From Planctomycetota bacterium (GTDB lineage: Bacteria; Planctomycetota; B15-G4; JADJEK01), in the NCBI GenBank assembly GCA_016213895.1, contig JACQZJ010000009.1, positions 10,246 to 74,245 on the forward strand: 64,000 nt of DNA, given 5' to 3'. Below are positions 1,922 through 55,798 of this stretch, piece after piece. Made by a program: the position numbers and the translations under genes. Under the pieces are notes generated by a model. The model saw nothing but the letters and a program-made list of their open reading frames with translations, was not told where the DNA came from and did not search any database. The first letter of the stretch is position 1. Each line of letters opens with the position of its first letter.

Positions 1922-2347
1922 ATGTGCGCACGCGCCCGCGCTGACGGCGGCGCGCCGGCCGGAGCGCAGAGCGGCCCGAGCGGCGCGCGCCTGCCGCGCC
2001 TCCTGCGCTTGCGCGGCGGCGCGCGCTTCGACGCGGCCTTCGGCGGCGCGCGTGCTTCCTCGGCTGCGCTCCTGGTCGTGGGAGTGAGGAACGGCCTCGG
2101 GTTCTCCCGCCTCGGCATCTCCACCGGCCGGCGCTTCGGCCCGGCCCATCGCCGCAACCGCGCGCGGCGCCTGCTGCGCGAGGCGTTCCGCCTGGACCGC
2201 CCCCTCCTGCCCGCGGGGTTCGACTTCGTCGCCGTGCCGCGCTCCCCGGCCTTCCCGGACCGCCTCGACCAAGTGCGCCCGCTGCTCCTGCGCCTGGCGA
2301 CCGCGGCCGCGCGCAAGCCCGGCGCGCGTCCGGCGAGCGAGCCTTGA
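1922..2347 (+). CDS. rnpA: Ribonuclease P protein component
   Basis: [31 protein letters not shown] matches the conserved RnpA basic core (RNRxKRxxRE-type). yidD follows 4 nt downstream, as is usual. The true start may be downstream of ATG 1922. Confidence 0.75.
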
Positions 2348-2351
2348 CCCC

Positions 2352-2567
2352 ATGGACCCGGTCAAGCCCCTGATCGCCCTGATTCGCGGCTACCAGCGCT
2401 TCATCTCGCCGTTTCGCGCACCGTCCTGCAAGTTCACGCCGACCTGCTCCCAGTACATGATCGAGGCGATCAGGAAGCGCGGCGTCATCGCCGGGACGGC
2501 CAAGGGGGTATGGCGCATCCTGCGCTGCCACCCCTTCTCGCGCGGCGGCTACGATCCGGTCGACTGA
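2352..2567 (+). CDS. yidD: Membrane protein insertion efficiency factor YidD
   Basis: 71 aa. [45 protein letters not shown] is the hallmark YidD sequence. Confidence 0.9.
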
Positions 2568-2576
2568 AGGCGCCCC

Positions 2577-5414: not shown

Positions 5415-6395
5415 TCAAGCGCGGCCCATGCGCACCTCGATGCGGTAGCGCTCCCGCGCGCGCCGATCCCACTCCGTCAGCTCGAAGGGATCGATCACGC
5501 GCGTCTCGAGCTCCTGCTCGATGTCCGCGGCCTGCTCGCTGTACGGCCTGGCGTCGGCCGGAAGCTCCTTCTCCAGGCGCAGGATCCGGAACAGCTCTCC
5601 GCTCTTGCCCGGAATGGAGGAAAGCTCGGCCCGCTCTCCCGGCTTCAGGCTTGCCGCCCCTTGTAGCAGGGGGTGCGGGCAGTCGCGCGCCACCGGCGGC
5701 AAAAGCCCCCCCTGCGCGGCGCTGCGGTCGATGGACTGGGCCCGCGCCAGGGCGGCGAAGTTCGCTCCCTCGTCGAGCTTGCCGGCGATCTCGCACGCCG
5801 CGTCCATCCCCTCGACCACGATCACCCGCACCTGGATGCGCTCCTCGAGCCGCGCCTGGTAGCGGATCACGCGCGCCAGGAACAACTCCTCCATCACCTG
5901 ATCTCGCACCGCCGCCCGATACGCCGCCGACGTGGTGCCGTAGCGCTCCAGGATGTACTGCTCGAAGTCGCGCCCCGGACCCGCGGCCAGCTCGAACTCG
6001 TCGCTCTGCGCCTTGAGCACCGCGGCCACGCTCTTCTCCACCTGGTCGGCCCCGATGCGCACGCAAAGGCGCCGCGCCTCCTTGATCATCAGCCGCCGCC
6101 GCACCGCCTGCTCGAGCGCGGCGTACACCAGCTCGGTGTGCGTCAGGAAGAGGAGCGGCAGCACCTCGGCCGCGCGGATCTCCTCGCCGTCGGCGATCGC
6201 CAGCACGCTGCCGCCCGCGGCTCCCTGCGCGGCGCAGGTCAGGTCGTCCACGGCGAGCAGCTCGACCGGCGCGCCGCGGGCGGCGCCCGCGGGAGCGGCC
6301 GCGCCCGCCTCCTGGCCAGACGCGCCCGAAGGAAGGCCATCCCCGGCCGCCAGGCCCGCGGCCAGCGCGCCCAGGAGGAGCCAGCGCCTCCCCAT
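5415..6395 (-). CDS. Secreted SurA/PrsA-like parvulin-type peptidyl-prolyl isomerase
   Basis: ATG 6395 shares one base with the upstream TGA (TGATG). Signal peptide MGRRWLLLGALAAGLAAG. VRVIVVEGMDAACEIAGKLDEGANFAALARAQSIDRSAAQGGLL..LKPGERAELSSIP..GELFRILRLEK aligns to the PpiC/parvulin pattern. Confidence 0.6.
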   Translation of the reverse strand: MGRRWLLLGALAAGLAAGDGLPSGASGQEAGAAAPAGAARGAPVELLAVDDLTCAAQGAAGGSVLAIADGEEIRAAEVLPLLFLTHTELVYAALEQAVRRRLMIKEARRLCVRIGADQVEKSVAAVLKAQSDEFELAAGPGRDFEQYILERYGTTSAAYRAAVRDQVMEELFLARVIRYQARLEERIQVRVIVVEGMDAACEIAGKLDEGANFAALARAQSIDRSAAQGGLLPPVARDCPHPLLQGAASLKPGERAELSSIPGKSGELFRILRLEKELPADARPYSEQAADIEQELETRVIDPFELTEWDRRARERYRIEVRMGRA

Positions 6396-7909
6396 CACTT
6401 GAAGACCACGATGCGGTCGAAGGTGAGCGTCTTGCACCGCGGGCAGGGCACGTCCCCCTCTTCCCCCTCCTGGTTGGGGTCGTTCCGGGCGAAGAACTCC
6501 TGGATCCCCTTGCCGTAGCACGTCGAGCAGTCGCGAATGCGCCGCGCCACCACGTTCACCTTGCCCGAGTTCTCGGCGAAGAACGCCAGCAGGAAGGCGG
6601 TCCGGTCCTTGGGCAGGGCGGTGGTCCACCATTCCTCGGGAGAGGGCGGCACGTCCACGATGTCCCCGACCTGCTTCACCTCCTCCTTCTTCTTGGCCTG
6701 CTGGTCCCGCTTCTCCTTGAGCCGCTGCTGGATCCTGCCCTGCAGGTCGACCGGGTCGTCCTCCTTCTTCTCCTCGCCCTTGGCCTCCTCTTCCTTGCCG
6801 CTGCCCTTCTCCAGGTTCTCCTTGGCCTTCTCGCCCAGGATGAAGGTGCCGCCGCCGTAGGAGGACTCGCGCGGCGAGGCGGCGATGCCGCGGCTCTCCC
6901 ACAGCTCGTCCACTTTCTCGGGAGTGATGCCGTAGAGGGCCGCCAGCTTCTCCTGTACGTCCAGGTAGGCCTGGTCCTTCGCCCAGGTCATCGCCTCCCC
7001 GAGGATGACCTCGCGGTCCAGGCCCTTCTCCTCGGCCAGGCGCCGCAGGATGGAGAAGAAATCGGTGCGGATCGCTTCCTGGTGAGCGCGCTGCTGCGCC
7101 TGCGCGATCTGGGCCTTCTCCTTCTGCACGTCCGCGAGCTGCAGCGAGTCCGGCCACTTCTCCTCGAACTCCTCGGCCAGCGCCAGGGCCTCGGCCAACG
7201 CCCCGCGGTACTTCAGGGAACGGACCCGCGCCAAGACGTCGGTCTGCTCCGTTTCGCGCTCCTTGACGTCCAGGTTGAGGAGCTTCTGCTCCAGGACGCT
7301 GCGCCGCGGGAAGTTGGGATCCAGCTCGAGTACGGTGGCGAAGCAGGTGCGCGCCTGCTCCCACAAGGTCAAGGTCTCGGCGATGAGCCCGAGGTTGTAC
7401 CAATCGACCGGCCGCTCCAGGTCCGCCTCGCGCTTCTTGTGTTCGAAGACCTGCGCCGGGTTCTCCACGGTGAGCGCGTCGACCTGGACCGTCTTGATCG
7501 ACAGGATCGACTCCTGCGGCACGCGCACGACGTTGTCCTTCTTGCGCAGCAGCAGGAAGCCCTCCTCCCGGCCCGCGTCCAGCCCGAGCAGGCTGCCCGT
7601 CGCCGTCCTCACCTCGAGCGCCTGCATCTGGATGGGCGGGAGCTCGTCCCCCTCGTAGCCGTACATGCGCTTGATCTTGACCACGTCCTCGTCGCGGATC
7701 TGGTCCCAGCGCAGGCGCAGCACGCCGCCGTTGTCGTCGCGGCGCAGCGTGACGCCGCGCGACTCGTCGAACCCGTCCGCCGGGATCACGCCCGAGACCT
7801 CCGCGCCCGTGGTCAGGCGCAGGATCACCGGCCGTTCCTCGCGGGCGAGCGCGCCGCCCGGCGCCAGGCCGAGCAGCAGCGCCCCCGCCAGCAGCATGCG
7901 CTTCATCAT
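6395..7909 (-). CDS. Secreted hypothetical protein with C-terminal CxxCxGxG / CxxC zinc-ribbon-like motif
   Basis: ATG 7909 is preceded by GGAGGTGGAG. Signal peptide MMKRMLLAGALLLGLAPGGALA. Lys/Glu-rich linker. The C-terminus carries CSTCYGKG...CPRCK. GTG 7933, overlapping the upstream stop, is an alternative start. Confidence 0.6.
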   Translation of the reverse strand: MMKRMLLAGALLLGLAPGGALAREERPVILRLTTGAEVSGVIPADGFDESRGVTLRRDDNGGVLRLRWDQIRDEDVVKIKRMYGYEGDELPPIQMQALEVRTATGSLLGLDAGREEGFLLLRKKDNVVRVPQESILSIKTVQVDALTVENPAQVFEHKKREADLERPVDWYNLGLIAETLTLWEQARTCFATVLELDPNFPRRSVLEQKLLNLDVKERETEQTDVLARVRSLKYRGALAEALALAEEFEEKWPDSLQLADVQKEKAQIAQAQQRAHQEAIRTDFFSILRRLAEEKGLDREVILGEAMTWAKDQAYLDVQEKLAALYGITPEKVDELWESRGIAASPRESSYGGGTFILGEKAKENLEKGSGKEEEAKGEEKKEDDPVDLQGRIQQRLKEKRDQQAKKKEEVKQVGDIVDVPPSPEEWWTTALPKDRTAFLLAFFAENSGKVNVVARRIRDCSTCYGKGIQEFFARNDPNQEGEEGDVPCPRCKTLTFDRIVVFK

Positions 7910-7929
7910 CGTTCGCTCCACCTCCGGCT

Positions 7930-8436
7930 TCACCCGCCGGTCTCCTCGGTCGTCTCCGGCTCCGGGCGCGGCGCAGGCCCGCCCGCGCGCGCCCGCCGGA
8001 TGAGCGCCTGCGGGTCCGCGCGCGGCCGCACGAACAACAGGAAGCTCTCGCCCTTCTTCCTGCCGGCGTCCACAGTGTACACGCGCACCGTGGCGAGCAC
8101 GCCCCCTTCCGTGCCGGTCTCGGGATCGCTCTCCATCTTCTCGATCGCGTAGAAGTAGCCCGGGTACTCCTCGATCGGCACCTCCCGCACCGGCGCCAGC
8201 TCCTCGCCCGGCCCGGCCGCCGCGCCCTCAGCGAGCAGGCGCTCCACGCGCTCCTGCACCAAGCCGCTCAGGTTCGCGACCATCGCGCGCTGCGTCGCCC
8301 CGCGATGCAGGGCCAGACCGCCGGCGAAGAGCGCCAGCACGCCGACGATCCCGGTGAGGAAGATCAAGAGCGCGGCCATCACCTCGAGCAGGGTGAAGCC
8401 GCCGGCGCGGCCGCGCGGCGTCATGCATCCTCTCAT
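7930..8436 (-). CDS. Prepilin-type minor pseudopilin, GspI-like (second set)
   Basis: ATGA overlap with the upstream stop. RAGGFTLLEVMAALLIFLTGIVGV is a prepilin cleavage/N-methylation motif plus hydrophobic helix. 168 aa. Confidence 0.75.
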   Translation of the reverse strand: MRGCMTPRGRAGGFTLLEVMAALLIFLTGIVGVLALFAGGLALHRGATQRAMVANLSGLVQERVERLLAEGAAAGPGEELAPVREVPIEEYPGYFYAIEKMESDPETGTEGGVLATVRVYTVDAGRKKGESFLLFVRPRADPQALIRRARAGGPAPRPEPETTEETGG

Positions 8437-9575
8437 GGGTCGTTCCAGTCCTCGCGAAACACTGGAAGCTCCACGACCCGCTGGAAGGTCTGCCCGAAGC
8501 GCAGGCGCGCTCCCGCGGCGTGCGCCCGGCGGCCCGTGTTGCGCGCGCCGCGCAGCACGCGCACATCTCCCTCCGCGGCCTGGCTCCATTCCATCCACTC
8601 TCCCTCGACCTTGAGGAAGGGGTGCGGCGGCCGCGCACCCGCGAAGGGCTTGAACGTATCCGGGCGCAGGGTGTTCGAGGTCGAGGTCATGGCCGCCGCG
8701 AGCCGCACCGTGGCCGCCTCGTCCTCGTCCCGCTCCAGCACCAGGGTGACGCGCACTCTCCGCGGGAACACGTCGTCGGAGCCGTCCTCCAGCGAGGCGG
8801 CGCCCTTCCCGAGCAGGAAGCGGTTGAACCCCTCCACGTCGAGCAGGAGCGCCCGGGTCGAGTCCCAGACCGTGAGCCGGCCGCCGGCGCTGTCGGGCGC
8901 GTCCTTCCAGGAGAGGGTGTCGCGCGACCAGAACTCGAACCCGAGGTAGAGCACGTTGTCCGCGAGCGGCACGGCCGCGCCGCACAGCCGCCGCGGATCG
9001 TCGAACAGGCGTCCCTGAAAAAGCGATCCCTCGCCGCCGATGGGCGCGCGGAAGAGGCGGTAGAGCGTGAGCGGAGCCGGGTCGCGTCCGACCTGCGGCA
9101 GGGCGAGGGTGGCGTAGGCGATCTCCGCCAGGCCGCCCGGGGCGAGCTCGGCTTGACCGCCGCCCTGCTCGGTGTCGCTGACCGCGGCCGTGCCTCCGGG
9201 GTGGTCGCCAGCCAGGCGCACCCGGCTGTCGAAGCGCTCCTCCGGACAGGAGCGCACGAAACGCAGCCGCTGCAGCACGCTCTCCTCGGCCTGGTCCAGG
9301 TCGAGATCGTAGAAGCCGTGATCGGCGATCAGCCTGACCGGCGCCTCGCCCGCCCCGGGCGCGGAATCGGCGCGCAGCATGCGCAGGTCGGCCGCGATGA
9401 ACTCCAGCAGGGACGAGGCGCGCTCCAGCGCCTCGCGCCCGCCCTCGCCCATGCGCCACACGTCGAGGGCGCCCTTGATCATCTGCGAGAGCATGCCCAC
9501 GAGGATCCCGAAGATCGCGATCGCCGTCACCAGCTCGATGAGCGTGAAGCCCTGAGTCAGCCGCGGGCGGCGCAT
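8433..9575 (-). CDS. Prepilin-type minor pseudopilin, GspJ-like (second set), 380 aa
   Basis: ATG 9575 shares a base with the upstream TGA. RLTQGFTLIELVTAIAIFGILVGML is a prepilin motif. Size and position next to the K-like gene suggest a J-type protein. Confidence 0.7.
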   Translation of the reverse strand: MRRPRLTQGFTLIELVTAIAIFGILVGMLSQMIKGALDVWRMGEGGREALERASSLLEFIAADLRMLRADSAPGAGEAPVRLIADHGFYDLDLDQAEESVLQRLRFVRSCPEERFDSRVRLAGDHPGGTAAVSDTEQGGGQAELAPGGLAEIAYATLALPQVGRDPAPLTLYRLFRAPIGGEGSLFQGRLFDDPRRLCGAAVPLADNVLYLGFEFWSRDTLSWKDAPDSAGGRLTVWDSTRALLLDVEGFNRFLLGKGAASLEDGSDDVFPRRVRVTLVLERDEDEAATVRLAAAMTSTSNTLRPDTFKPFAGARPPHPFLKVEGEWMEWSQAAEGDVRVLRGARNTGRRAHAAGARLRFGQTFQRVVELPVFREDWNDP

Positions 9576-12500
9576 CAGTTCCACTCCTCGTAGGCCAGGC
9601 GCGCGGGCGCGGCCAGCCACTCGACGCCGAGGGCGCGCAGGCGCGGGGCGCGCTTCCACTCGTTCGAGCCGCCGCGCGCGGCGCCCGGATCGGGCTCGAA
9701 CACCGCCGCGTCGAAAGCGCCTTCCTTGAAGCGCGTGAAAACGCGCAGCTCCAGGCTGTCGCCCTGGCGCAGGATGTTGCTCGGCCCGGGCGCGCCCGCG
9801 GCCGCCTCGAAGAAGAAGACGTCGGGCGCCTGCGCCGGGTCCTCGGTGAAGCGGCCGCGCCCGCCCACGCGCGCCTCGACCACGAGGTCGGCCAGCTCGG
9901 ACGCGTTCTCCGCCTGCCAGGAGAGCTCCTGGTAGAAGCCGCCCTTGGCCTTGAGGAAGAAACCGAGGTAGGCCAGCTCCGGGTCGTCGGCGCGCGGCCG
10001 GTAGCGGTCCTCGTAGCGCGCCGGGAAGAGCAGCACGAGCGTGCCCTCGACGTGCGCCTCCGGCCGAGTGCCGAAGCGGCCGCGCAGCAAACCGACGTCG
10101 CCGCGCCGCTCCGGGTCGCGCCACAGCGGCATGACCAGCTTGTTGTCCTCCTTGCGCGTGTAGCCGAGCAGCTCGCGGCCGATCTGCACCAGGCCGCCGC
10201 GCGTGGGGAAGTCGCCCGCGTCCTTCAGGACCAGCTCGTGATCGTCCGGGCCGATCGACTTCTCCAGGCGCGACACGCGCAGGAAGGTCAGCTCGCGCGC
10301 GGCCGCGCTGCCGCGGTGCATCTGGATCGGCGTGCCGAGGAAGCCGCGGCCGTTCACGGCCACGGTCAGCTCGGCCTCGCGCCCCTCGTCCGGCATGTCC
10401 ACGTCGGAGAAGGCAATGAACTCGTCGTCGATGAGCAGCACGAAGCCGTCGTCCGGCAGGTTGCCCACCGGATCGATGGCCTCGATGACCGGGCCGCCGC
10501 GGTCCCAGAGGTTGTAGCGCAGCACGTCGCGCCGCAGGTAGAGGGGCTCGTCCGGCTCGAGCTTGTCGTCGCGGCCGAGGACGTAGCGCGGATGCCGCGG
10601 CAGCACCTTGGACGGCGTGTCCGGGGCGAAGAACTCCGCCTCGTCCAGCAGGCCGCCGCCCGGGGACGGCGCGCCGTACATGTCGCCGCCCAGGTAGAGG
10701 TTCTCGCCGATCCTGCTCGGCAGCTCGCCCGAGGGGAACTTCAGCAGGCGCGTCAGGTCGCGCGACTCGATGTTCTGGTTGGCGAGCGCGTCCATGGCCG
10801 CGCCCGGATCATCGGGATCGACGCGCGAGAACAGGTCGTAGAAGTTGGAGCGGTACTCGCCGAGCACGCCGACCTCGAAGGCGAGATGACAGGCGAATGC
10901 CCCCCAGCCCTCCACGTCGGTCTCGCAGTAGCCGTAGTTGACGCGCTGCTCCTCCTGCGAGTGCGTCAGCGGATCGACCAGCGTGACGAAGTCGCGCGCG
11001 CCCGGGCGCGCGGTGTAGATGCTCTCGTTGCGGAAGGTGCGGAACACCGGCAGGACGCGCGCCTCCTGGGGGTGCCGCTTGGCTCCGGTGCCGAGCACGC
11101 CGCGGAAGGCCAGCACGCCGCCGTCCAGACGCGTGGACTGGAGCTTCGCCTCCTGCGCGATCTCGTTCTTGTCCTTCTGCGTGCCGGCGATCTCCTCGTA
11201 GTTGAGCGCCTTGGCGATGGCCGCGGCCGTGGGCATGTCCGAGGACCCCGCGTTCTTCTTGGTGAAGAACACGGTCAGGTCGCGCGCCAGGATGTCGACC
11301 ACGGAGCGCACGCGCGTGGGCTCGTCGCGCACGAAGCAGCCCGCGCCGATGTCGTCGTAGCGCACCCACTCGGTGCCGCCGCCTTCCTCGCGGCCGGCGA
11401 AGCCCGTGCCGATCTGCACCATCTCCGGCCGCGTCAGGCCCTGCTGGCCGCGCCGCGGCACCGGGTAGTCCTGCACCACCTTCTCGTGGCCGAGCCCGAT
11501 CTTCACCGACAGCGGCACCACGAAGATCGGCTGCTTTTGTTCGTAGCCGCTCTCCGACGGCTCGAGCGCCCACTCGGCCACGTGCGCGTGCGCCCAGGTG
11601 GCGCTCTTGTCCGCGTCCACCGCCGAATCCTCGACCTGCAGCAGGTTGCACGTATCCCCGGCCCACTCGGCGTTCTCCGCCGCGCCCGGCGCCCGCTCCA
11701 CCGCCATGAGCGTGTTGTTGGCGAAGCCGCCGTAGCGGATCAGCTCGCCCAGGCCGATGATCTCGCCGTTGGTGGACCTCAGCACGTTCGTCCACGAGAA
11801 CTGGGCCTGCCTGTCTCCCATCTGCACCGTCTCGTTCCCGCCGGTCGAGGGCGGCCGGCGCGGGCAGGAGACGACGAGCGCGAAGCCGCCGTCCTCGTCG
11901 AACAGGCTCTCCAGGCTTGCGCTCGCCGCGGTCGAGCTGCTCGAGGCGTTGGGGTTGCCGAGGGCCACGAGCGGCAGGGACGTCACCGTGGAGTCGATGC
12001 CGGTGCCCACGGGCAGGGACGCGGCGCCGCCCCCGGTTTCGGTGAACTCCACGTTGATGCTCTTCGAGGCCTCGTCCGCGTCCGGATCGACCATCGCGAT
12101 CCCGAACTCGCCGAGCGCGTTCTTCAGTCCCGTGTTGCCGTGCGGCACGTACTCGGAGAGCAGGACCGCGGCGTAGCCGAACAGCTCGACCGCCTCGGAC
12201 TCCTCGGACTCCTCGTGATCCTGGCCGCGCGAGCCGCGGCGCGCGCGGCCGCCGAAAGCGTCGCCGGCCACGCGCGAGACGATGAGCTCCTTGTCCGTGC
12301 GGTCGAGGTACTCGATCAGCTCCCAGCCGATGCGCACGATGCCCCAGGGCGGGAAGAGGCTGGCGTCCTCGACCTTGATCTTGAAGTCCTGCCCGGCGGT
12401 GTAGCCCGGGATGTTGGCGAAGGGCCCGGCGTCGCCCGGCGGATCGAGCGGCTCGGCCAGGCGCGTCTGGAAGGCCCGCCGCCCGCGCGGCACGCCGTCC

Positions 12501-15759: not shown

Positions 15760-16363
15760 CGGCCGTGCCGTAGACGCCGTCCTCGCCCACCGATAGGAGC
15801 TGGTACGACTCTTTCGCATAGAAACCGCCGGTCAACTCGCTCACGGCGCCGGTCACGACCTTGGCCACCCACTCGGCCGTGTCGGCATCCAGGAACTCGT
15901 AGCACGACTCCTTGCCGTAGTCGTCGTAGCGGATGTAGACGAAGGGGTTGTCCCAGGCGTCGACCACCTCGAGCAGGACCGGCATCCCGTGGATGGTGAC
16001 GTTCTTGTCCGCGACGTCCTCGCCGTCCTGGTTCTTGAGGTACTTCTCCGGGATGCGCTCGCCGTCGTAGTCCTTGTGGAAGAAGCCCACGACCAGCGCC
16101 TCGTTGCCCTCGTCGACGTCGTTCTTCGCCTTCAAGCCGTAGCGCGCCAGCTGGCTGTACGGGTAGTCCCCGGTGCGGTTCCGGTACTGCTCGAGCAGCC
16201 CGCTGAGCTGCTGCAGGCGCGAGCGCGTGTCCGCCTCCTTGCCCGTCGCCAGGAACTTGGGGTACTGCGTGGCCCCGATCCCGAGGAGCAGAGCCAGGAT
16301 CGAGATCACGACCAGGAGCTCGATCAACGTGAAGGCGCGTCGTGTTCGCATTGGTGCCGCCAT
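15734..16363 (-). CDS. GspG-like major pseudopilin (second copy, 209 aa)
   Basis: RRAFTLIELLVVISILALLLGI is a prepilin motif. DAWDNPFVYIRY and LLSVGEDGVYGTADDI resemble the GspG core motifs. ATG 16351 is an alternative start. Confidence 0.85.
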   Translation of the reverse strand: MAAPMRTRRAFTLIELLVVISILALLLGIGATQYPKFLATGKEADTRSRLQQLSGLLEQYRNRTGDYPYSQLARYGLKAKNDVDEGNEALVVGFFHKDYDGERIPEKYLKNQDGEDVADKNVTIHGMPVLLEVVDAWDNPFVYIRYDDYGKESCYEFLDADTAEWVAKVVTGAVSELTGGFYAKESYQLLSVGEDGVYGTADDIASYLE

Positions 16364-16405
16364 TCTATCCCGTGGAACCCTCCGCGGTAACGAACGCGGC
16401 GCGCC

Positions 16406-19144
16406 TCACCCCTGGTAGCGCACGACGCGCACGAAGCCGCTGGTGACGGCCACGTTCTGGCGGGCGTCGGCCTCGACGAAGAGCGCGCCCACCACCTCGC
16501 GCCTGAGCTTCTTCAGGCCGCTCACCTCGATCCCGTCCAGGACCACGCGCTCGTCGACCAGGATGCGGAAGACCCCCCTTTCGGCGTCCGTGCGCTCGAT
16601 GCCCAGCTGGAACTCCTGGCCGGCCGGCAGGCGCACGTCCGGCACCTCGAGCCAGTCCGCCTCCGCCTCCTCCCTGCTCCTCGCCAGGACGCGCAGCGAC
16701 CCGTCCGCGCAGCGCGCCACCGCGATCTCGCCCATGATCTGCGGCCCGGAGTCCTTGCCTGGGCGCTCGTAGGCGAAACGCAGGCCGGCCTTGCCCTCGC
16801 AGGAGGCCGCCACGCCGAACCGCGCCTCGAGCAGCACGAAGGCGGCGCCCGCGATCACGCGGCTCAGCTCGCTGCGCTCCCCCGCGCTCTCCTGGCGCTG
16901 CACGCCGCTGATCTCGAGCTGGCCGTCGCCGTTCAGGCGGATCTGCGGTCCGTGCGGCTCGGTCAACGTCCAGTCGTTCTTGATCTGCTTGCGGTTGAAG
17001 CGGTCGACCCACTGCTCCTTGCCGCGATGGTCGTCGACGAGCGCCTGGTTGCGGTCGGCGTAGAGGCGGTGCGGGTCGGACTCCGCCGGGCACGCGGCGC
17101 GGGCCGCGGCAAACTGCTGCAGCGCCTGATCGACGTTCCCCTCGCGGTACTCGCACCAGGCGACGCCGCACAGGGCCGCGGCGGCCGGCAGCTGCGGGTC
17201 GCCCGCGCCCATCTTGAACTCCTCCCGCGCCGCCGCCACCTGGTTCATGCGCAGGAGCGCCGCGCCGAGCAGCACCCGCACCTCGCGGTTGTCCGGCTCG
17301 CGCCGCAGCGACTCGCGCAAATACCGCTCCGCCGTCTCCGGCTCGTCCTGGAGGAGCGCCGTGTAGCCCAGCTCGTTCAGCACGTCGGTGATGCGTCCGT
17401 CCCGCTCCAGGGACTCGCGCAGGCGCGCCTCGGCCGACTCCAGGTCGCCGCTCAGGCGCGCGATGCGGCCGGCGCGGTACAGGCCGAAGGGCTCGCCCGG
17501 CTCGAAGAGCAGCGCCTCCTCGAACCAGAAGGCCGCCTTCTCCAGGTTCCCGGCCGACTCCTCCAGCGCGCCGAGAGCCACCGCGGAGTCGAACGCCGCC
17601 AGCGGGTCCAGGTCGGCCGCCTCCTGGAAGCGGGCGCGCGCCTGCTCCAGGGCCGCGGGCTCGCCCGCGCCGCGCGCCAGGGCCACGCCCAGGTCGTAGA
17701 CCGCGGCCCGGTGGCGCGGATTCTCCTCCAGCGCCGTGCGGAACTCGCCGATCGCGTTGGCCGTGTCTCCGCTCATCAGGTCGAGCACGCCCTTGAGCAC
17801 TCGCGCCTCGCTCTGCTCGCCTCCGAGCCTCAGGACGCGGTCGACCTCGCTCAGCGCCTCCTGCGCGCGGTTGACGCGGATCAGGGCGCGCACCAACTCC
17901 ACGCGCAGCTGCTGGCGCGCCTCGGCGCTCAGCCCGCTGACCTTGAGCGCGCTCTCCAGCGCCGCCACCGCCTCGGCGCCGCGCTCCGCGGCGAGGAGCA
18001 CCCGTCCCAGCTCCGCCCACGCCGCCTGGTCGTTGGGGTTGAGCCTCAGCCCCGCCCGCAGGATCGACTCCGCCGCCTGCGCCAAGCCAAGCCGCCGCAG
18101 GATGCGCGCGCGCCGCGTCTCCAGGCGCGAGTCCGCGACCCCGGCCGCGCGCGCCTCGTCGCACACGCCGATCTCGGCCTCCGTGTCGCCGGCCAGCTCC
18201 TGCACCCGGCCGAGCAGCTCCCAGGCGTCCGCTTCCAGCGGGTTGAAGGACAGGGCGGAACGCAGGAACTGCTCCGCGCCCTCGAGCGCGGCGCCGGCGT
18301 CCTCGCTCGCCCAGCCCAGGCACTTGCGCGCCGCCTCGAGCTGCGAGCGCACGCTGCCGGCGCTCGGCTTGACCAGGCGCCGCTCGAGCACCACGCGGTT
18401 GCGCACCGTGTCGGCGAAGCCGAAGCCCTGGCCGAATGCGCCGTCGCCCTCCAGGTCCGCGCGTTGGAACGTCGCCGTGCCCGAGTCCTTGCCCGTGACG
18501 ACGTTAACCGCCTTGAACTGCAGCGCCAGCGAGGGATTGTCCAGGAGCGCGAACTTGTCCGGATTCAGCACGTAGCCGTAGACGCGCGGGCGCCCCTTGC
18601 GCTTGAACCAGTCGTAGCTCTTCTCGAGAGCGGCCTCGGCCGGGGCCGGCGCGGCTGCCTCTGCCCCCGCCGCGGGAGGGAAGTCGATGCCGCCGAAGCG
18701 CTCGTCCTCGGCCGCGCCCTCCTCCGCGCTGGCGTCATCTTCCTCCCCGGCAGGCGCGGGCTGTTCCGGCTCGGCGCCCGCGGCCGCGGGGGCCGCGGGG
18801 GGCGGCGCCAGGCGGAAGAAGCGCAGGTGCGCGGACTCGACCGAAGGCTCGGGCAGCAGGCCCACGGCGCCGATCGGCGGGAGCGGCGGAGGATCGAGGA
18901 TGAGGGGCGGCAGCGGGTTCCAATCCCGCGGCGGCATGAAGACGTCGCGCCCGCCCCGTTGCGTGCGCGGCTCGTCCGTGTCCGGGAAGCGCACCTCCGG
19001 CACGCGCGGCGCCTCGACCAGCGGGAACGCGCGCTCGCGCGGCAAGGGCGGCGACTGGTAGGCGCCCGAGTGGCGCAGATAGATGAGGAGCCCGGCGATG
19101 ACCAGCACCAGCAGGAACAGGGCCTGCTCCCGATTGGTCTTCAT
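16406..19144 (-). CDS. Membrane-anchored proline-rich TPR-repeat protein with C-terminal beta-sandwich-like domain (912 aa)
   Basis: ATGA overlap with the upstream stop. TM helix ALFLLVLVIAGLLIYL. Pro/Ala-rich spacer. Many TPR-like helical repeats (..AWAELGRVLLAAERGAEAVAALESALK..). The last ~200 aa are beta-rich. Confidence 0.7.
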   Translation of the reverse strand: MKTNREQALFLLVLVIAGLLIYLRHSGAYQSPPLPRERAFPLVEAPRVPEVRFPDTDEPRTQRGGRDVFMPPRDWNPLPPLILDPPPLPPIGAVGLLPEPSVESAHLRFFRLAPPPAAPAAAGAEPEQPAPAGEEDDASAEEGAAEDERFGGIDFPPAAGAEAAAPAPAEAALEKSYDWFKRKGRPRVYGYVLNPDKFALLDNPSLALQFKAVNVVTGKDSGTATFQRADLEGDGAFGQGFGFADTVRNRVVLERRLVKPSAGSVRSQLEAARKCLGWASEDAGAALEGAEQFLRSALSFNPLEADAWELLGRVQELAGDTEAEIGVCDEARAAGVADSRLETRRARILRRLGLAQAAESILRAGLRLNPNDQAAWAELGRVLLAAERGAEAVAALESALKVSGLSAEARQQLRVELVRALIRVNRAQEALSEVDRVLRLGGEQSEARVLKGVLDLMSGDTANAIGEFRTALEENPRHRAAVYDLGVALARGAGEPAALEQARARFQEAADLDPLAAFDSAVALGALEESAGNLEKAAFWFEEALLFEPGEPFGLYRAGRIARLSGDLESAEARLRESLERDGRITDVLNELGYTALLQDEPETAERYLRESLRREPDNREVRVLLGAALLRMNQVAAAREEFKMGAGDPQLPAAAALCGVAWCEYREGNVDQALQQFAAARAACPAESDPHRLYADRNQALVDDHRGKEQWVDRFNRKQIKNDWTLTEPHGPQIRLNGDGQLEISGVQRQESAGERSELSRVIAGAAFVLLEARFGVAASCEGKAGLRFAYERPGKDSGPQIMGEIAVARCADGSLRVLARSREEAEADWLEVPDVRLPAGQEFQLGIERTDAERGVFRILVDERVVLDGIEVSGLKKLRREVVGALFVEADARQNVAVTSGFVRVVRYQG

Positions 19145-19920
19145 CGCTTCGCTCCCGTGACCTGGACCGCGGGATCGATGGTGAGCGCCGACACCGTCAG
19201 CTTCAGCACGGTCAAGCCGGAGGACTTGCCCTGGTCGGGCTCGATCATGAAGTCCTCGACGCACAGGAACTGCTCGCCGCCCCGCACCAGGCTGTCGATC
19301 AACTCGGCGATGGCAGCCGTCGTGCCCGCGATCTCGAAGCGCACTTCCAACGGCTCGACGAAAACCTCGCTCTTCTGGCGCGCGCGCCCCTTCTTCTCCA
19401 CGATCTCGATTCCGTCCACGGCGCGCACCTCGGCCACGATCGCCGCGCTCACGACCTGTTCGACGACGCACAGGCCGCGCAGGTAGCGCTGGATCGCCTC
19501 CTTGCCGTCGGGCGTGTAGTCCGGCAGCCCGAGCGTGTCCTTGACGCGGATGTTGCGGCGCGCGGCAAACTCGACCAGGTCCTCGCGGGCCTGCCCGCGT
19601 ATCGCGTTGTAGAGCAGATCGGGATTCGGCTCGTTCTTCGGCAGCAGGTAGCGTTCCTCGGTGACGAAGGCCAGGCGCGCGTACAGCTCCTCGAGCCGCG
19701 CGGCGAGCGCCGAGCTCTCCCCCGTCACCGCCGCCACCTCCGCGGCGCGCGGCGCCTCCTCCCGGCGCAGGCCCGAGGCATGCCGCTCCACGCCCCGCGC
19801 CGCGGCCGGCGCGTCCCAGATCGAGCCCACGACGCCCTTGCCGATGAGGACCAGCACGACCGCGCAGCCGACCCCGAGGATGAACCTCCGGTTGCCCTGC
19901 CAAACGTCGTTCAGGTCCAT
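19141..19920 (-). CDS. GspM / PilO-like inner-membrane assembly protein
   Basis: ATG 19920 shares a base with the upstream TGA. Short cytoplasmic N-terminus, TM helix FILGVGCAVVLVLIG and a coiled coil. The C-terminal EVRFEIAGTTAAIAELIDSL..LTVLKLTVSALTI is the typical PilO/GspM ferredoxin-like end. Confidence 0.55.
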   Translation of the reverse strand: MDLNDVWQGNRRFILGVGCAVVLVLIGKGVVGSIWDAPAAARGVERHASGLRREEAPRAAEVAAVTGESSALAARLEELYARLAFVTEERYLLPKNEPNPDLLYNAIRGQAREDLVEFAARRNIRVKDTLGLPDYTPDGKEAIQRYLRGLCVVEQVVSAAIVAEVRAVDGIEIVEKKGRARQKSEVFVEPLEVRFEIAGTTAAIAELIDSLVRGGEQFLCVEDFMIEPDQGKSSGLTVLKLTVSALTIDPAVQVTGAKR

Positions 19921-21608
19921 CACTTCCGCTCCTCGCCGCCCGCCTCGTCCTCGCCGGCCTCCTCGCCGCCGGCAGGCGCCTCCGAGAAGTTCATGGTGAT
20001 CGTCCACTGGAACGGCTTGTTCGCGCCGCCCGGGAAGATCGCCGTCTTCGGCGTGCGCGGCAGGAGCGCGTCGCGGTCGAGGTCCTGCGCGAAGCGGTTG
20101 AAGAGCTGCTCCAGCGCCTCCGCCCCCTCCCTCCCCTCGCCGCGCACCTCGACCACCGGCTTGGCCTCGCCCACGATGCCGAGGTCCAGGTCGGTGGTGC
20201 GCTTGTGCGCGATCGAGGTCACGTAGAAGTCCTCCGGCAAGTAGCGCTGCAGGAGGGCGAGAGTGCGCTCGAGGCCGGTGCCGCCGACGACTCGCTCCTC
20301 CAGGAGCTCCACGCGGCGCGCGTACTCGGCGCGCTCCGCGACCGCCTTCTCGTAGTCGCGGCGCCGCCCCTGGCGCGTCTCCAGCTCGCGCCGGAACCTG
20401 GTCTCGTCGCGCGCCGCAGCGGCCTCGTCCGTGGCGCTCCTGTAGGCGTCATGCGCCACGAAGAGCACGGCGAGCACCCCGGCGGCGATGGCGAAGGCCG
20501 TCTTCTCCTTGAAGGTGCGCGCCTTCTTCAAGGCCGGCGGCAGGATCTCGATGGAGTAGAGGTCCGGGTACAGGGCCGAGACGGCCAGGCCGAGCGCCAC
20601 CACGGCGGTCGTCCGGCTCTTCTCGTCGAGCTGCGGGTCCACGCCCGAGGTGTCCACCTGCCCAAACGGGTCGAAGCGCTCCACCGGCACGCCCAGGTTG
20701 GACGAGAGGTAGCGGTCCAGCCCCTTGAGCAGCGCGCCGCCGCCGCACAGCAGCACGCGGTCGAGCGCCAGCTCGCGCACGCCGGTCTGCGAACGGGCGA
20801 AGGTCACCGAGGACTGCACCATGGAGAAGATCTGCCCGGTGGCTCCGGACAGGGCGCGCGCGACCTTCTCCTCCTGCGGCGAGCGCCGCGTCGCCTGGTC
20901 GAACGGCGACACGTCGGCCAGCTCCTCCTTGAGGCGCCGCGCCTTGTGGGCGCTGACGTTGAAGGAGGCGATCAGGGCTTCGTCGAAGAGGTCGCCGCCT
21001 CCCGAGAGGTTGCGCGCGAAGACCAGGTCGCCGTTCTGCACCACGGCCATGTCCGTGTTGCGCGCGCCGATGTTCATCAAGAGCGCCGTCCCCTCGGCGT
21101 TTCCGGCCTTGCGGTAGGCGTTGTACAGGGCGATCGCGTTCGGCCGGAAGGAACGCGCCTTCAGGCCGGCGGCGCCGAGCACGGCCGCGTGCGCGTCGAG
21201 CACCCCGCGCTTCGCCAGGGCGAGCAGCACGGTGTCGTCCGAGGACACGTCCGAGGCTACCGGCACCAAGTTGAAGTCGGCGGCCAGCTCCTCGCCGGAC
21301 TGGCCGGTCATCTCCTTGATCTCGAACTCCATGAGCTGCCGCAGCTGCCAGTCCGGAACGGGCGGCACCTGGCTGTAGCGGATGACCACGTCGCGCCCGG
21401 TGAGGCCGCAGTCGACCGCGCCCTTCACGTTCGCCGCGGCCAGGGCCTCGCGCAGCAGCAGGCCGACGTGGTCCAGGTCCTCACGCCGCTCCCGCGGCAG
21501 CGGCACCACGACCAGCTGGCGCACCTGGAAGGCGCCCTTGCGGTCGACGCCGGCCACCAGCCGAACCGCATCCGTCCCGATGTCGATGCCGATCGCGCCG
21601 CGCGCCAT
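19920..21608 (-). CDS. GspL-like protein: PilM actin-like ATPase-fold domain fused to a TM + PilN-like domain
   Basis: The N-terminus GAIGIDIGTDAVRLV is PilM-like. TM helix AFAIAAGVLAVLFVA lies mid-protein, followed by a coiled coil plus a periplasmic domain. ATG 21608 shares a base with the upstream TGA; GTG 21611 is an alternative start. Confidence 0.7.
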   Translation of the reverse strand: MARGAIGIDIGTDAVRLVAGVDRKGAFQVRQLVVVPLPRERREDLDHVGLLLREALAAANVKGAVDCGLTGRDVVIRYSQVPPVPDWQLRQLMEFEIKEMTGQSGEELAADFNLVPVASDVSSDDTVLLALAKRGVLDAHAAVLGAAGLKARSFRPNAIALYNAYRKAGNAEGTALLMNIGARNTDMAVVQNGDLVFARNLSGGGDLFDEALIASFNVSAHKARRLKEELADVSPFDQATRRSPQEEKVARALSGATGQIFSMVQSSVTFARSQTGVRELALDRVLLCGGGALLKGLDRYLSSNLGVPVERFDPFGQVDTSGVDPQLDEKSRTTAVVALGLAVSALYPDLYSIEILPPALKKARTFKEKTAFAIAAGVLAVLFVAHDAYRSATDEAAAARDETRFRRELETRQGRRRDYEKAVAERAEYARRVELLEERVVGGTGLERTLALLQRYLPEDFYVTSIAHKRTTDLDLGIVGEAKPVVEVRGEGREGAEALEQLFNRFAQDLDRDALLPRTPKTAIFPGGANKPFQWTITMNFSEAPAGGEEAGEDEAGGEERK

Positions 21609-23962
21609 CACCGCTCCTCGATCCTCTCCTGAGCCCGCCGCGCCGGCTCCGATCCGGGGTAGAACTCGCGCAGGAACGCGGCGATCTCGCGCGCCACGCG
21701 CTCGCGCGCCGGCTGCTCCGCGAGGGCCGTCTCCAACCGGCGCAGAAGCAGCTCCGCCTCGCGCTCGCGCGCGCTCTGGACCAGCGTCTGGCGCTCGCTG
21801 GCCAGCTCGACCTCCGTGCCCTGGAACTCGCCCGCGGACGCGGTTCCGGCCAGAGCCGCGGCCGCGGCCCGCGCGTCCTCCTCCGCCTCCAGGTACGCAG
21901 CCGGGCTCCGGAGGAATCGCGCGCGCTCCACGGCCGCGTCCAGACGCGCCGCGTAGCGCTCGCGCTCGCGGATGATCTCTTTCCGCCTGTTGTCCGCCTC
22001 GGCCAGGATCCCCTCGTCGAACGGGAACTCGTTGGTGACGCGGTCGAGGATGGTCAGCGCCTCACCCAGCCGCCCGGCCTGCTGCGCCGCGCGCGCCTTG
22101 CCCGCCAGCTCGGTCGCCTGGGTCTTTTCCTCGACGAAATCGACCTGCATGCGGACCACGACCCTTTCCGCCGCCGGCCGCAGCACCAGCTGGTAGACCT
22201 CCGCGCCCCGCGCCGCCTCGACCTGCACCTCGGGTTCGAAGGCGAGCCGCATGCGCGTCGTCCCCTTGCCCAGCACCAGGCCGGTCACCGCGTCCGCCTC
22301 GAACGAGTCGCGGTACGGCTCGAGCCGGCCGCCGGCCACGACGCCCACCGGCTCCTCGGTCAGCGCCGGCAGGAGCGTGATCGGCAAGCGCGCCGTCGCG
22401 CCCGGAGCCTGCCACTCGACGCGCCAGCTGGCCGACCGCGCATCCGTGGCGAAGGCCGAGGCGTAAGCGGCCGCCGCGCCGCCGGGGAGAAGCAGCGCGC
22501 CGTTGTGCAGGAACCTGTCGGCGGCGCGCGCGCTCCCCCCCTCGGCCACCTCCAAGAGCAGCGCGCCCATGCGCAGCAGGTCGGCGCCGCGCCGCACCAG
22601 CAGGTGCTCGCCGGCGCGCTCGAACTCGAACTGGTTGATCGACGCGACCGTCGCGCGCCCGGGACCGCCCTCCTCGACCACGAGGTCGTCGAACACGACC
22701 TCGCCGGAGCTGCCGGAAGCGACCAGGACCAGCGCGAGCTGCGTCGCGCCCGCGGGCGGCGCCAGCTCGGCGGAGATCTGCCGCCAGTCCGCGACGGCCG
22801 ACGAGCCGACCTGCACCAGCACGCGGTAGCTCTCGTCCGCGGCGCTCGAGAACTGCGCCGCGAGCACGGCCACCGCCTCGTCGCTCGTCCTGGCGTAGCC
22901 GCTGATCCTGAGCGTGCGCCCGCTCACGCGCATGCCGTCCCGCAGGAGCGCCACCGCCTCGCTCCCCGAGGGACGGGCGAGCAGCGCCTGCTGCCCGGAA
23001 CGCACCGCGGTCGTAGTCAACTGGAACGCCGCGCCCGAGGCGTCGCCGCCGCCCAGATCCCACGCCGTGCCCGGCGCCGGCGCGCTCTCGGAGATCTCGA
23101 ACGACCAGCGCTCGCCGAGCAGGTTGCCCGCGGCCGCCGGCGCCGCCGGCGCTTCGGACGAGGCGCGCCGCACGTGCCAGTAGAACCAGCCGGCGCCGCC
23201 CAGGGCGGCGAGCAGCAGCAGCAGCCCCACGAGGGCCAGCGGCCCGCGCCGCTCCGCGCCCGCCACGTTCTGCACGACGCGCACCGTCGGCACGTTGATC
23301 AGCGTGTGCGCGCCCTCGTCCGGCTCGGCCGCCGGCAGCGGGGGATCGCCTTGCGCCGCGTCGGCCAGCACGAACTCGCTCTCCCCCATGACCACGCGGT
23401 CGCCGTGGTCGAGCACGATCTCGTCGATGCGCTTCCCCTCGAGGAACGTCCCGTTGGTCGAACCCAGGTCCTTGAGCACCGGCCGGCCCTGCTCCAGGAC
23501 GAGCTCCGCGTGCACCCCCGACACCTTGGCGTCCTTGAGCACCACCGTGTTGCTCGACCTGCGGCCGAAGGTCAGCCGCTCGCCCGCGAAGCGCACGCGC
23601 TCGCCGGCGCGCTCGCCGCGGCAGAAGATCAGCACGTACTGCGCCTGCCCGGCGCGCGCCGCCTCTCCGCCCGCGGCCGCCTCGGCCGCGCTCGCGAAGA
23701 GCAGCTCGGTCCGACCCACGCGGATGCGGTCGCCGTCCGCGAGCTTCACGCGGTCGATGCGCTCCTCGCCGCGGAACGTGCCGTTCGCCGACTTCAGGTC
23801 CTCGAGGATGTAGTCCTCGCCCTCGCGCGTGATGCGGCAGTGGCGGCGCGAGACTCCCGCGTCGTCGAGGATGATCTCGTTCCCCTCGTCGCGCCCGATG
23901 CGGCACAGATCCTGGAACGGGGTCTCGCGCGGCTCTCCGCCGAGGTTGATAAGCTTCGCCAT
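21608..23962 (-). CDS. Transmembrane protein with two N-terminal FHA domains
   Basis: FHA 1: CRIGRDEGNEIILDDAGVSRRHCRI..LEDLKSANGTF. FHA 2: LTFGRRSSNTVVLKDAKVSGVHAEL..LKDLGSTNGTF. TM helix LALVGLLLLLAALGGAGWFYW. About 500 aa follow outside the membrane. Confidence 0.8.
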   Translation of the reverse strand: MAKLINLGGEPRETPFQDLCRIGRDEGNEIILDDAGVSRRHCRITREGEDYILEDLKSANGTFRGEERIDRVKLADGDRIRVGRTELLFASAAEAAAGGEAARAGQAQYVLIFCRGERAGERVRFAGERLTFGRRSSNTVVLKDAKVSGVHAELVLEQGRPVLKDLGSTNGTFLEGKRIDEIVLDHGDRVVMGESEFVLADAAQGDPPLPAAEPDEGAHTLINVPTVRVVQNVAGAERRGPLALVGLLLLLAALGGAGWFYWHVRRASSEAPAAPAAAGNLLGERWSFEISESAPAPGTAWDLGGGDASGAAFQLTTTAVRSGQQALLARPSGSEAVALLRDGMRVSGRTLRISGYARTSDEAVAVLAAQFSSAADESYRVLVQVGSSAVADWRQISAELAPPAGATQLALVLVASGSSGEVVFDDLVVEEGGPGRATVASINQFEFERAGEHLLVRRGADLLRMGALLLEVAEGGSARAADRFLHNGALLLPGGAAAAYASAFATDARSASWRVEWQAPGATARLPITLLPALTEEPVGVVAGGRLEPYRDSFEADAVTGLVLGKGTTRMRLAFEPEVQVEAARGAEVYQLVLRPAAERVVVRMQVDFVEEKTQATELAGKARAAQQAGRLGEALTILDRVTNEFPFDEGILAEADNRRKEIIRERERYAARLDAAVERARFLRSPAAYLEAEEDARAAAAALAGTASAGEFQGTEVELASERQTLVQSAREREAELLLRRLETALAEQPARERVAREIAAFLREFYPGSEPARRAQERIEER

Positions 23963-25091: not shown

Positions 25092-25161
25092 TCGCGGCGC
25101 CGCGGTACAGTGCCCCCCCGGACGGGCGCTCGCGCGGCGCCCGCCGCGCAAGAGGACGCAT

Positions 25162-55695: not shown

Positions 55696-55724
55696 TTGAC
55701 TTGGGAAGACCGTGCTCATAGGAT
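55696..55724 (+). promoter_or_regulatory. Candidate sigma-70-type promoter for the gspD operon
   Basis: TTGACT-N17-TAGGAT, about 75 nt upstream of ATG 55799. GGGAGGG lies 7 nt before the start. Confidence 0.35.
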
Positions 55725-55798
55725 CCGTGAAAACCGCGGTCGCTCAAGAATCCTGCCGCAGAGCCGGCAGAAACCACAGCGTAGGGAGGGGTTTTCGC

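Follow-up and report, generated by a model that had tools for sequence, protein, structure and literature searches.

What machine does a block of pilin-type genes serve when it carries no motor of its own? The question is raised by a 64,000-nucleotide stretch of a Planctomycetota bacterium genome (assembly GCA_016213895.1, contig JACQZJ010000009.1, positions 10,246 to 74,245 of the forward strand; from now on referred to as the window), in which eleven consecutive minus-strand genes, g1 to g11, were recognized. In a first-pass annotation, the block had been described as assembly-platform partners plus five pilin-type proteins, and Pfam and NCBIfam domain matches support this description. Its observation that the block lacks an ATPase, a GspF-type platform protein, a secretin and a prepilin peptidase also holds, as no such match was found in Pfam and NCBIfam scans of the block proteins. 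The pilin-type products g5, g6, g7, g8 and g9 are referred to as G', H', K', J' and I'. On balance, the gene content of the block and of a second, gspD-J locus in the same window leads us to lean towards reading the two loci as halves of one filament machine derived from a type II secretion system (T2SS), with two pilin sets and a single giant K-type cap.

The block consists of 11 open reading frames (ORFs) with high third-position G+C, running from 23962 to 5415 in a window with a G+C content of ~72%. Re-derivation reproduced the coordinates and stop/start overlaps reported for all 11 genes (Table 1). The start codon of g6 is uncertain, and the 26-nucleotide (nt) overlap with g5 is therefore likewise uncertain. 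Sequence scans found no terminator-like or sigma-70-like sites inside the block above shuffled expectation, and a sigma-54 promoter pattern gave no signal (4 matches vs 18.7 expected). Relatives of K' were found only in Planctomycetota metagenome-assembled genomes (MAGs). Counting one genome per species, 191 genomes carry a K' relative, and the complete chromosomes OZ245838.1, OZ245006.1 and CBDFJQ010000002.1 are among the carriers of the block; 78 loci were kept, nearly all of them labelled uncultured Planctomycetota, and searched with the window proteins by tblastn. Wherever the flank sufficed, the genes follow one another in the same order, at K' identities as low as 25%, and this order reads FHA, PilMN, g3, TPR, G', H', K', J', I', g10, g11 and then scpB. 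The median gaps at all ten junctions from g1 to g11 lie between -4 and +26 nt in the related loci, so the tight packing is not due to chance. Comparative genomics had been proposed as a check on the block, and the same order and tight spacing were thus recovered in relatives. The gap between g11 and scpB has a median of ~250 nt, from which it follows that the operon unit ends at g11 and that scpB is a separate unit. Judged by order and spacing, the 11-gene block is a real, tightly packed operon conserved in uncultured Planctomycetota. The distant variant L086 keeps g1-g9 in another neighbourhood, with an extra 122-amino-acid (aa) gene before the TPR gene, and lacks g10, g11 and scpB; the core is therefore g1-g9, with g10 and g11 as lineage-specific additions. 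Secretin, ATPase and platform genes are not found within 10 kb of the block in any of the 78 loci.

Motor genes are located 32 kb away from the block. The first-pass annotation had listed DEF machinery at 55.8-63.6 kb; D, E and F are present, but the locus is not limited to them and reads D-E-F-G-H-I-J. The best secretin model is TIGR02517 gspD (296 bits vs a cut-off of 351), GspE passes the curated TIGR02533 gspE cut-off (631.7 vs 630.25 bits; pilB 572 vs 675.65) and GspF scores 423.5 bits in TIGR02120 (cut-off 424). No ORF was found beyond GspJ in the window; K, L, M and C do not follow. The same D-E-F-G-H-I-J order, then a convergent serS, is found in L084, L085 and L087 (63-79% GspE identity). 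Since the cluster ends after J in the window and in three relatives, the gspD-J locus appears to lack K, L, M and C across the clade. No GspC, PDZ or HR-domain match was obtained in either locus, and g1 or g4 might substitute for GspC. Because the gspD-J locus (from now on referred to as locus 2) has its own G-H-I-J genes, the block represents a second pilin set and not the sole one. Within the two loci, K-, L- and M-type candidates were seen in the block alone. Counted over both loci, there is one D, E and F and one K, together with one L-equivalent and one candidate M-equivalent, and G-H-I-J is present twice. Both loci also occur in another MAG, on the 544-kb contig JAEUIC010000005.1, with the block at 189.6-214.6 kb and the D-J locus at ~441-449 kb, ~226 kb apart. 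Gene complementarity and the presence of both loci in the same genome in two cases speak for the earlier proposal that the block uses the gspDEF machinery. No prepilin peptidase was detected among the window ORFs scanned with Pfam.

Table 1 Features of the block and of the gspD-J locus. Positions are those of the window.
Feature	Position	Strand	Description
g1	21608..23962	-	784 aa, two cytoplasmic FHA, membrane helix aa 242-260, ~520-aa periplasmic part
g1/g2 junction	21608-21611	-	GTGA, overlap 4 nt
g2	19920..21611	-	563 aa, actin-like domain in the cytoplasm, membrane helix aa 371-389, PilN-like part in the periplasm
g2/g3 junction	19920	-	TGATG
g3	19141..19920	-	259 aa, bitopic, membrane helix aa 13-31, PilO/GspM position
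g3/g4 junction	19141-19144	-	ATGA
g4	16406..19144	-	912 aa, N-terminal helix aa 8-26, Pro-rich segment, long TPR array, C-terminal beta-rich domain
g4/g5 junction		-	gap 42 nt
g5 (G')	15734..16363	-	209-aa prepilin-type protein
g5/g6 junction		-	overlap 26 nt, given the ATG at 15759 as g6 start
g6 (H')	14752..15759	-	335-aa modular prepilin, LamG/ConA-like head
g6/g7 junction	14752	-	TGATG
g7 (K')	9575..14752	-	1,725 aa: GspK-like module ~aa 1-525, LamG-like ~aa 620-770, ~900 aa beta-rich
g7/g8 junction	9575	-	TGATG
g8 (J')	8433..9575	-	380-aa prepilin-type protein with C-terminal small beta-barrel motif
g8/g9 junction	8433-8436	-	ATGA; alternative g9 ATG at 8424 leaves a gap of 8 nt
g9 (I')	7930..8436	-	164-168 aa by start choice, GspI/PilV-like prepilin-type protein
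g9/g10 junction		-	gap 20 nt
g10	6395..7909	-	504 aa, signal-peptide-like N-terminus, one TPR, C-terminal CxxC...CxxC knuckle
g10/g11 junction	6395	-	TGATG
g11	5415..6395	-	326-aa exported SurA/PpiD/PrsA-like chaperone, parvulin-type peptidyl-prolyl isomerase (PPIase) region
GspD-type secretin	55712..58075	+	Secretin 1.2e-39, Secretin_N x3
GspE ATPase	58075-59787	+	T2SSE 1.5e-133; GTG start overlaps secretin stop codon
GspF platform protein	59794-61008	+	T2SSF 5.1e-60
GspG	61024-61503	+	T2SSG 5.4e-18; gspG 88.1 bits vs cut-off 88.85
GspH	61508-62080	+	GspH 1.2e-4; gspH 5.9e-9
GspI	62064-62600	+	gspI 2.2e-5
GspJ	62612-63562	+	orthologue in L087 matches Pfam T2SSJ

The prepilin motif with Glu5 is present on g5, g6, g8 and g9. 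G' matches N_methyl (2.1e-7), T2SSG (5.4e-4) and, under cut-off, TIGR01710 gspG (3.9e-11), and it aligns with locus-2 GspG over 103 columns (hhalign probability 99.6%). Its [GA]FTLxE motif is found in 58 of 65 orthologues, and G' is a candidate major subunit. The residue at position -1 is Ala in the window and in an 88%-identical relative (RRA|FTLIELL) and Gly in most orthologues. The LamG head previously assigned to the H-like g6 was confirmed in Pfam (Laminin_G_3 1.3e-9), alongside N_methyl (6.7e-5); its best hhalign profile match is locus-2 GspH (96.7%), marginally over GspG (96.3%). J' matches N_methyl (4.8e-7), the gspJ N-terminus (0.004) and locus-2 GspJ (hhalign probability 97.2%, 198 columns), and its C-terminal positions 297-368 weakly match the phage tip attachment protein J 8rk3 (E 0.01). 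Lastly, I' matches N_methyl (1.2e-4), TIGR02523 PilV (1.9e-5) and locus-2 GspI (hhalign probability 96.9%, 81 columns). As each of these block pilins best matches the locus-2 pilin of the same letter, G', H', J' and I' can be regarded as paralogues of G, H, J and I; with K', the block pilins make a complete G/H/I/J/K set. The count of five prepilin-type N-termini given earlier stands in full for these four, which carry the N_methyl motif, while the fifth, K', lacks Glu5 and shows weak, concordant K-type matches.

The N-terminus of K' ('RGAALMAVILVL...') is a hydrophobic helix without Glu5. GFxxxE is likewise absent from 72 of 72 extracted K' orthologues (a few N-terminally truncated), which read 'RG[AVI]AL[IM]AV...' at this position. 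PilK homologues invariably lack Glu5, a hallmark of the apical PilK/GspK subunit (PMC13533445). Residues 12-83 match NCBIfam T2SS_GspK (9.2e-6), and the top match of the N-terminal profile against the Protein Data Bank (PDB) is XcpX/GspK 5vtm (E 0.11), on a 'PVNVNT..vL.al' motif. Pfam gave no match for the window protein itself; the family members P0288 and P0137 match Pfam T2SSK, both under cut-off (4.9e-4 and 0.009). Several weak, concordant matches thus support K' as a putative GspK/PilK-type minor pilin, and the K-like label of the first-pass annotation is supported by these matches and by the Glu5-less N-terminus, but not by a Pfam T2SSK match of the window protein. Laminin_G_3 is matched in three K' family members (4e-9 to 6.5e-5); two of the three have it immediately behind the K module. 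It should be noted that in P0137 (an ENA contig; 2,042 aa) Laminin_G_3 lies at aa 142-248, ahead of the K module, an architecture explained by an H'-K' fusion or else by a wrongly called start. The K' of L086 (P0016, 10001-16009) has 2,002 aa.

Beyond the pilin module, the remaining ~1,165 residues of K' form a family of their own, with 1,150 cluster representatives matching the C-terminal profile at E<=1e-3 and 459 at E<=1e-30. Full-length members are almost all 1,600-1,850 aa long and are named only 'hypothetical', 'LamG domain-containing' or 'PulG' in the sources. Neither the window K' nor most of the family members scanned matched any curated family, and the ~900 C-terminal residues did so in no member scanned. 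AlphaFold2 models of K' are mostly beta, with low to moderate confidence; the alignments behind them were shallow (13 sequences), because a further homologue search with the K' alignment gave the same 16 proteins. Foldseek searches of the 1-560 model against the PDB returned only small beta-barrels, from the N-terminal domains of tailspike and F1-ATPase proteins, and none of them reached E<=1e-3. The 561-1725 model, with a predicted local distance difference test score (pLDDT) of 65, had no PDB fold match at E<=1e-3 and gave 23 matches of low template-modelling score in a viral library, to phage structural, tail and fibre proteins. The phage matches of the K' models, the PHROG matches and the phage J match of g8 were treated as shared small modules only. 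One such small motif, 'G.E.I.Y...L...RG..GT...H..G' (also written 'GEW/GxELIxY ... RGxxGT ... HxxGxxV'), is beta-barrel-like, recurs in K' and is also found at the C-terminus of J' (aa ~297-368); it weakly matches 8rk3 (E 0.01), PHROG tail/virion proteins and tailspike N-terminal barrels. In K', conservation peaks at the 12-residue stretch 'RLLKFPSGELP' (aa 1335-1346, window 10717-10752), with a mean top-residue frequency of 0.86 over 67 orthologues.

The platform side of the block is headed by g1 and g2. The proposed double-FHA transmembrane architecture of g1 was borne out, with two FHA stretches (Pfam 7.5e-40) and one membrane helix called by hydropathy. Its profile matches FHA proteins in the PDB (down to 7.5e-21), and positions 247-346 gave weak carbohydrate-binding module (CBM) 22 and phage fibre matches (8.6e-6 to 0.019), so that a weak CBM-like beta-sandwich match is all that was obtained for the periplasmic part. 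A role of g1 as a PilP/GspC-like connector was considered and rejected, as the profile search against the PDB gave no such match. In relatives, g1 is the first gene of the block and its number of FHA domains varies; the L003 orthologue is a 635-aa protein with FHA matches, and the L002 orthologue (1377-3065) has 562 aa and no FHA match on record. Judged by profile matches, g2 is a genuine PilM-PilN fusion. It matches Pfam PilM_2 (1.3e-27), TIGR01175 pilM (8.7e-38) and the Amuc_1101 family (2.3e-40, 139 bits vs an equivalog cut-off of 650), and its orthologue profile matches Myxococcus xanthus PilM (3jc8, 1.3e-37, positions 3-341) and PilN (3jc8, 2.4e-6, positions 347-477) in the PDB. The same profile gave no GspL match; of the earlier description as a GspL-like PilM/PilN fusion, the fusion is retained, but the likeness is to the type IVa pilus rather than to GspL. 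As a functional equivalent, g2 may nevertheless take the place of GspL.

The assignment of g3 as GspM/PilO-like fits its topology and a weak hhalign profile match (probability 56%, E 1e-4) to the PilN-like region of g2, where the membrane helix and coiled coil lie, but sequence searches did not confirm it: g3 has no Pfam, NCBIfam or PDB match, even with a 20-member orthologue profile, and only one of the 20 orthologues matches T2SSM_b, at 0.071. The position of g3 is conserved among the related loci. The 912-aa g4 is a TPR protein, as annotated, with many Pfam TPR matches (e.g. TPR_16 9.7e-21). NCBIfam gave only sub-threshold matches to PilW/Tgl/PrsT-type TPR proteins. Its Pro-rich motif is conserved in the orthologue alignment, and an R[DN]xF motif near aa 65 is found in 23 of 56 orthologues.

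Building on the observed gene content, conservation, paralogy and complementarity, we infer a partnership with GspDEF, filament formation, a ligand and a mode of regulation. The gspD-J locus would supply the secretin, the ATPase, the platform protein GspF and the pilin set G, H, I, J. The block would supply the inner-membrane alignment pair g2 and g3, the K-type cap and the second pilin set G', H', J', I', and would add the lineage-specific envelope proteins g1 (FHA-membrane) and g4 (anchored TPR) as well as the exported helpers g10 and the PPIase chaperone g11. A prepilin peptidase encoded elsewhere would cleave the [GA]FTLxE pilins. I', J' and the Glu5-less K' may then form the initiating tip complex on a PilMN/g3/GspF platform, H' would link this complex to a G' stem, and GspE would power polymerisation through the GspD secretin. 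K' would cap the filament and carry a large, probably glycan-binding head, since ~1,200 residues, made up of LamG-like and other beta-rich modules, separate its pilin module from its C-terminus. Glycan binding, as known from the modular pilins of Streptococcus sanguinis, is suggested by the lectin-type (LamG/CBM-like) modules of g1, g6 and K', and regulation through Ser/Thr phosphorylation by the FHA domains present in g1.

Several points weigh against joining the two loci in this way. The matches behind the K-type assignment are weak (9e-6 for the N-terminal helix, 0.11 for XcpX, 5e-4 for T2SSK in a relative), and the AlphaFold2 model of K' residues 1-560 (pLDDT 54) did not retrieve GspK. Over its last 12 residues, K' shows no more than average conservation, so that a conserved donor strand at the extreme C-terminus, as in CpaL/GspK, is not supported yet. 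Profile searches against the PDB and Pfam scans of 20 orthologues detected no PilO/GspM similarity in g3, and the platform protein is nearer to type IVa pilus PilM/PilN than to GspL. The joint reading gives no reason for two G-H-I-J sets beside one K. All carriers found are uncultured MAGs. Finally, the motor survey covered the window and the fetched loci, and a PilB/PilC/PilQ set serving the block may be encoded elsewhere. This would be the case if the block were independent of gspDEF and belonged to a type IVa-pilus-like machine whose PilB/PilC/PilQ and peptidase genes are located elsewhere in the genome. Such a machine would fit the closeness of g2 to M. xanthus PilM and PilN, the PilV match of g9, the finding that 0 of 78 loci have a motor gene within 10 kb and the usual multi-locus organization of type IVa pilus systems (PMC6668835). 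However, the gspDEFGHIJ locus would then have no K, L or M, the block pilins are specific paralogues of the G, H, I and J of that very locus, g5 matches GspG and not PilA, and no PilB, PilT, PilC or PilQ genes were found in the 64-kb window. We consider an independent machine unlikely.

An ordinary T2SS split over two loci would keep the gspDEF partnership and differ in purpose: the filament would be a periplasmic pseudopilus piston, K' a large periplasmic tip touching substrates or the secretin, and the function secretion, not adhesion or capture; a surface fibre would not be formed. GspE passes its curated cut-off and GspF and GspG fall less than 1 bit short, no retraction ATPase (PilT) was found in the window, and T2SS loci are known to vary, with some T2SS-like systems classed only as 'generic' (PMC6668835). 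Described T2SS, however, have one G-H-I-J-K set with a K of ~300 aa (the NCBIfam GspK model has a length of 307), whereas two G-H-I-J sets and a 1,725-aa K with lectin-type modules are present here; FHA, TPR, LamG-pilin and PPIase genes do not belong to the T2SS, the platform here is of the PilM/PilN type, and the K-like family has no curated model or name in the sources. We regard this secretion reading as rather unlikely. Since the block sits beside scpB, yidD and rnpA and is apparently inherited vertically, it could also be an envelope-biogenesis or housekeeping complex with recruited pilin-like and PilM-like proteins that forms no filament. The conserved neighbourhood of scpB, a second SurA_N-like gene, yidD and rnpA and the PPIase chaperone inside the block would agree with such a role, but five prepilin-type N-termini, four with cleavage motif and Glu5 and one cap-like and Glu5-less, are the signature of an assembling filament, the ~250-nt gap sets scpB apart as its own unit, and L086 keeps g1-g9 in a different neighbourhood. 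This makes a housekeeping complex highly improbable. Going beyond the joint two-locus machine that we favour, one may picture a so far undescribed type of filament, a T2SS-powered surface fibre of Planctomycetota with a polysaccharide-binding giant K cap and a LamG H pilin, serving macromolecule capture or uptake, in which one cap is common to two interchangeable pilin sets and control is exerted by FHA domains and Ser/Thr kinases; in this specific form, the proposal is speculative and we hold it to be quite unlikely.

Compared with the canonical T2SS (gspC-O; Escherichia coli GspIJK, Pseudomonas aeruginosa XcpVWX), the two-locus system shares the secretin, GspE, GspF and GspG at or near curated cut-offs, the minor pilins G/H/I/J/K, of which K lacks Glu5 and presumably acts as the cap, and a membrane pair of L-equivalent and candidate M-equivalent. 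It differs in being encoded in two unlinked loci without GspC, in having a PilM-PilN fusion as L-equivalent with no detectable GspL or GspM, in combining two G-H-I-J sets with one K of 1,725 aa (vs a 307-position GspK model), and in its gene order G-H-K-J-I with extra FHA, TPR, Zn-knuckle and PPIase genes. The departure in order and sizes from textbook gspGHIJK (~120-330 aa), pointed out in the first-pass annotation, thus holds and is extended by the presence of two pilin sets in two loci. PilM and PilN homology is shared with type IVa pili (M. xanthus; P. aeruginosa PilMNOPQ and FimU-PilVWX-PilY1), and the TPR protein g4 weakly recalls PilW/Tgl. Type IVa pilus minor-pilin operons give rise to a priming tip bearing a very large adhesin (PMC7541494, PMC13533445). 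Unlike in those systems, PilM and PilN are fused, no PilP, PilT or PilY1 was found and no PilQ in the block, the large head is part of the K pilin and not a separate PilY1, and the motor genes are of the T2SS type.

In some K homologues, a large insertion separates the pilin module from the C-terminal strand; one of them is CpaL (~600 aa) in the Tad pilus of Caulobacter, which has been proposed to sit at the filament tip (PMC13533445). K' resembles CpaL in layout, with a pilin module at the N-terminus and a large non-pilin domain behind it; it is about three times larger than CpaL, with ~1,200 extra residues where CpaL has a ~470-aa middle region, and its context is of the T2SS type. In S. sanguinis, the modular minor pilins PilB and PilC mediate adhesion and glycan binding (PMC8179133, PMC9934059). 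By their domain matches, g6, with N_methyl and a Laminin_G_3/ConA-like head, and the K' family, with its LamG-like module, appear comparable; those pilins, however, belong to monoderm type IV pili and have modules of a few hundred residues, whereas the block is found in a diderm, T2SS-type context.

Two gene clusters of related bacteria were also considered. The Verru_Chthon cassette (TIGR02596/02598/02599/02600) comprises prepilin-type proteins and one very large protein. Weak N-terminal matches were seen for g5 and g6 to cassette protein D (22.2 and 19.3 bits vs a cut-off of 70) and for g8 to protein C (19.6 vs 256.5), mainly in the N-terminal helix; no block protein matched proteins A or B at E<0.01, K' against A included. 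No paper naming the cassette turned up in the literature searches. In the Amuc_1098-1102 pilus-like cluster of Akkermansia (PVC superphylum), the PilM-like Amuc_1101 family is matched by g2. Membership in the Verru_Chthon cassette or the Amuc_1101 family was rejected, the scores being far under the cut-offs.

Literature searches found no paper describing the block, and the K'-like family is unnamed in the sources searched. The suggestion of an undescribed variant system can therefore be kept in part: no description emerged from paper searches, but known type IV filament parts are recognisable throughout. The system is widely conserved and unnamed, yet assembled from recognisable parts. Textbook type IV filament machines fall into few types; here, motor, secretin and pilin genes of the T2SS are combined with a PilM-PilN platform resembling that of type IVa pili, the whole is spread over two loci, and G-H-I-J is duplicated with a single cap kept. 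The cap family is large, with at least 459 clusters at 50% identity in 191 species-level genomes, and strikingly uniform in length. If the assignment is true, K' would be the most extreme K-type pilin with its own adhesin-sized head so far, with a bearing on recent work on tip complexes that license filament assembly. The system would further be a concrete candidate for surface fibres in ecologically abundant, mostly uncultured polysaccharide-degrading bacteria. Where automated annotation calls the T2SS of such a genome an 'incomplete system', the call may be wrong, since the parts that it misses lie elsewhere and escape recognition.

The two genes closing the block encode exported proteins. 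The description of g10 as a secreted Zn-ribbon protein agrees with its signal-peptide-like N-terminus and its four cysteines (C461, C464, C489 and C492), which are invariant in 24 orthologues; against the PDB, g10 gave TPR matches only. The parvulin-like PPIase region of g11 is weak in the window (SurA_N_3 1.4e-4; PPIase models 1.9e-8 at aa 185-297) and clear in the L003/L004 orthologue, where Rotamase, Rotamase_2 and Rotamase_3 are matched. Beyond g11 lie scpB (4675-5328, minus strand) and a 695-aa SurA_N/PpiD-like protein (2577-4664, minus strand). Most relatives have the same scpB and SurA_N-like genes, then yidD and rnpA on the other strand. Two PPIase-like chaperone genes thus flank scpB in a fixed housekeeping neighbourhood.

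Upstream of g1, the minus-strand gene at 24169-25041 encodes a membrane protein of 290 aa whose T2SSG-like domain is matched by Pfam (4.2e-5) and gspG (3.4e-4). It has three hydrophobic segments and no prepilin cleavage motif, and tblastn found it only in the closest relatives (L010, L012, L014 and L016), at the locus edge. Divergent from this side, at ~25100-26964 on the plus strand, lies a sigma-54 activator with an N-terminal FHA domain (4.2e-20), Sigma54_activat (2.8e-41) and HTH_8, and a Ser/Thr kinase gene is found at 36176-37642. The region upstream of gspD-J (45049-55647) is conserved in L084, L085 and L087. An ABC transporter together with its GldG-like auxiliary protein (ABC_transp_aux, DUF4340), dnaK, a Sua5/LMWPc fusion and a histidine kinase are encoded there, joined in relatives by rpsU. 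Directly before the gspD secretin lies a phosphotransferase system (PTS) EIIA-2 protein. Unrelated to the block, the minus strand at 40874-45048 encodes an MrfA-like DEAD-box helicase, which carries an MZB zinc domain at its C-terminus, beside an RNase_H_2-superfamily protein.

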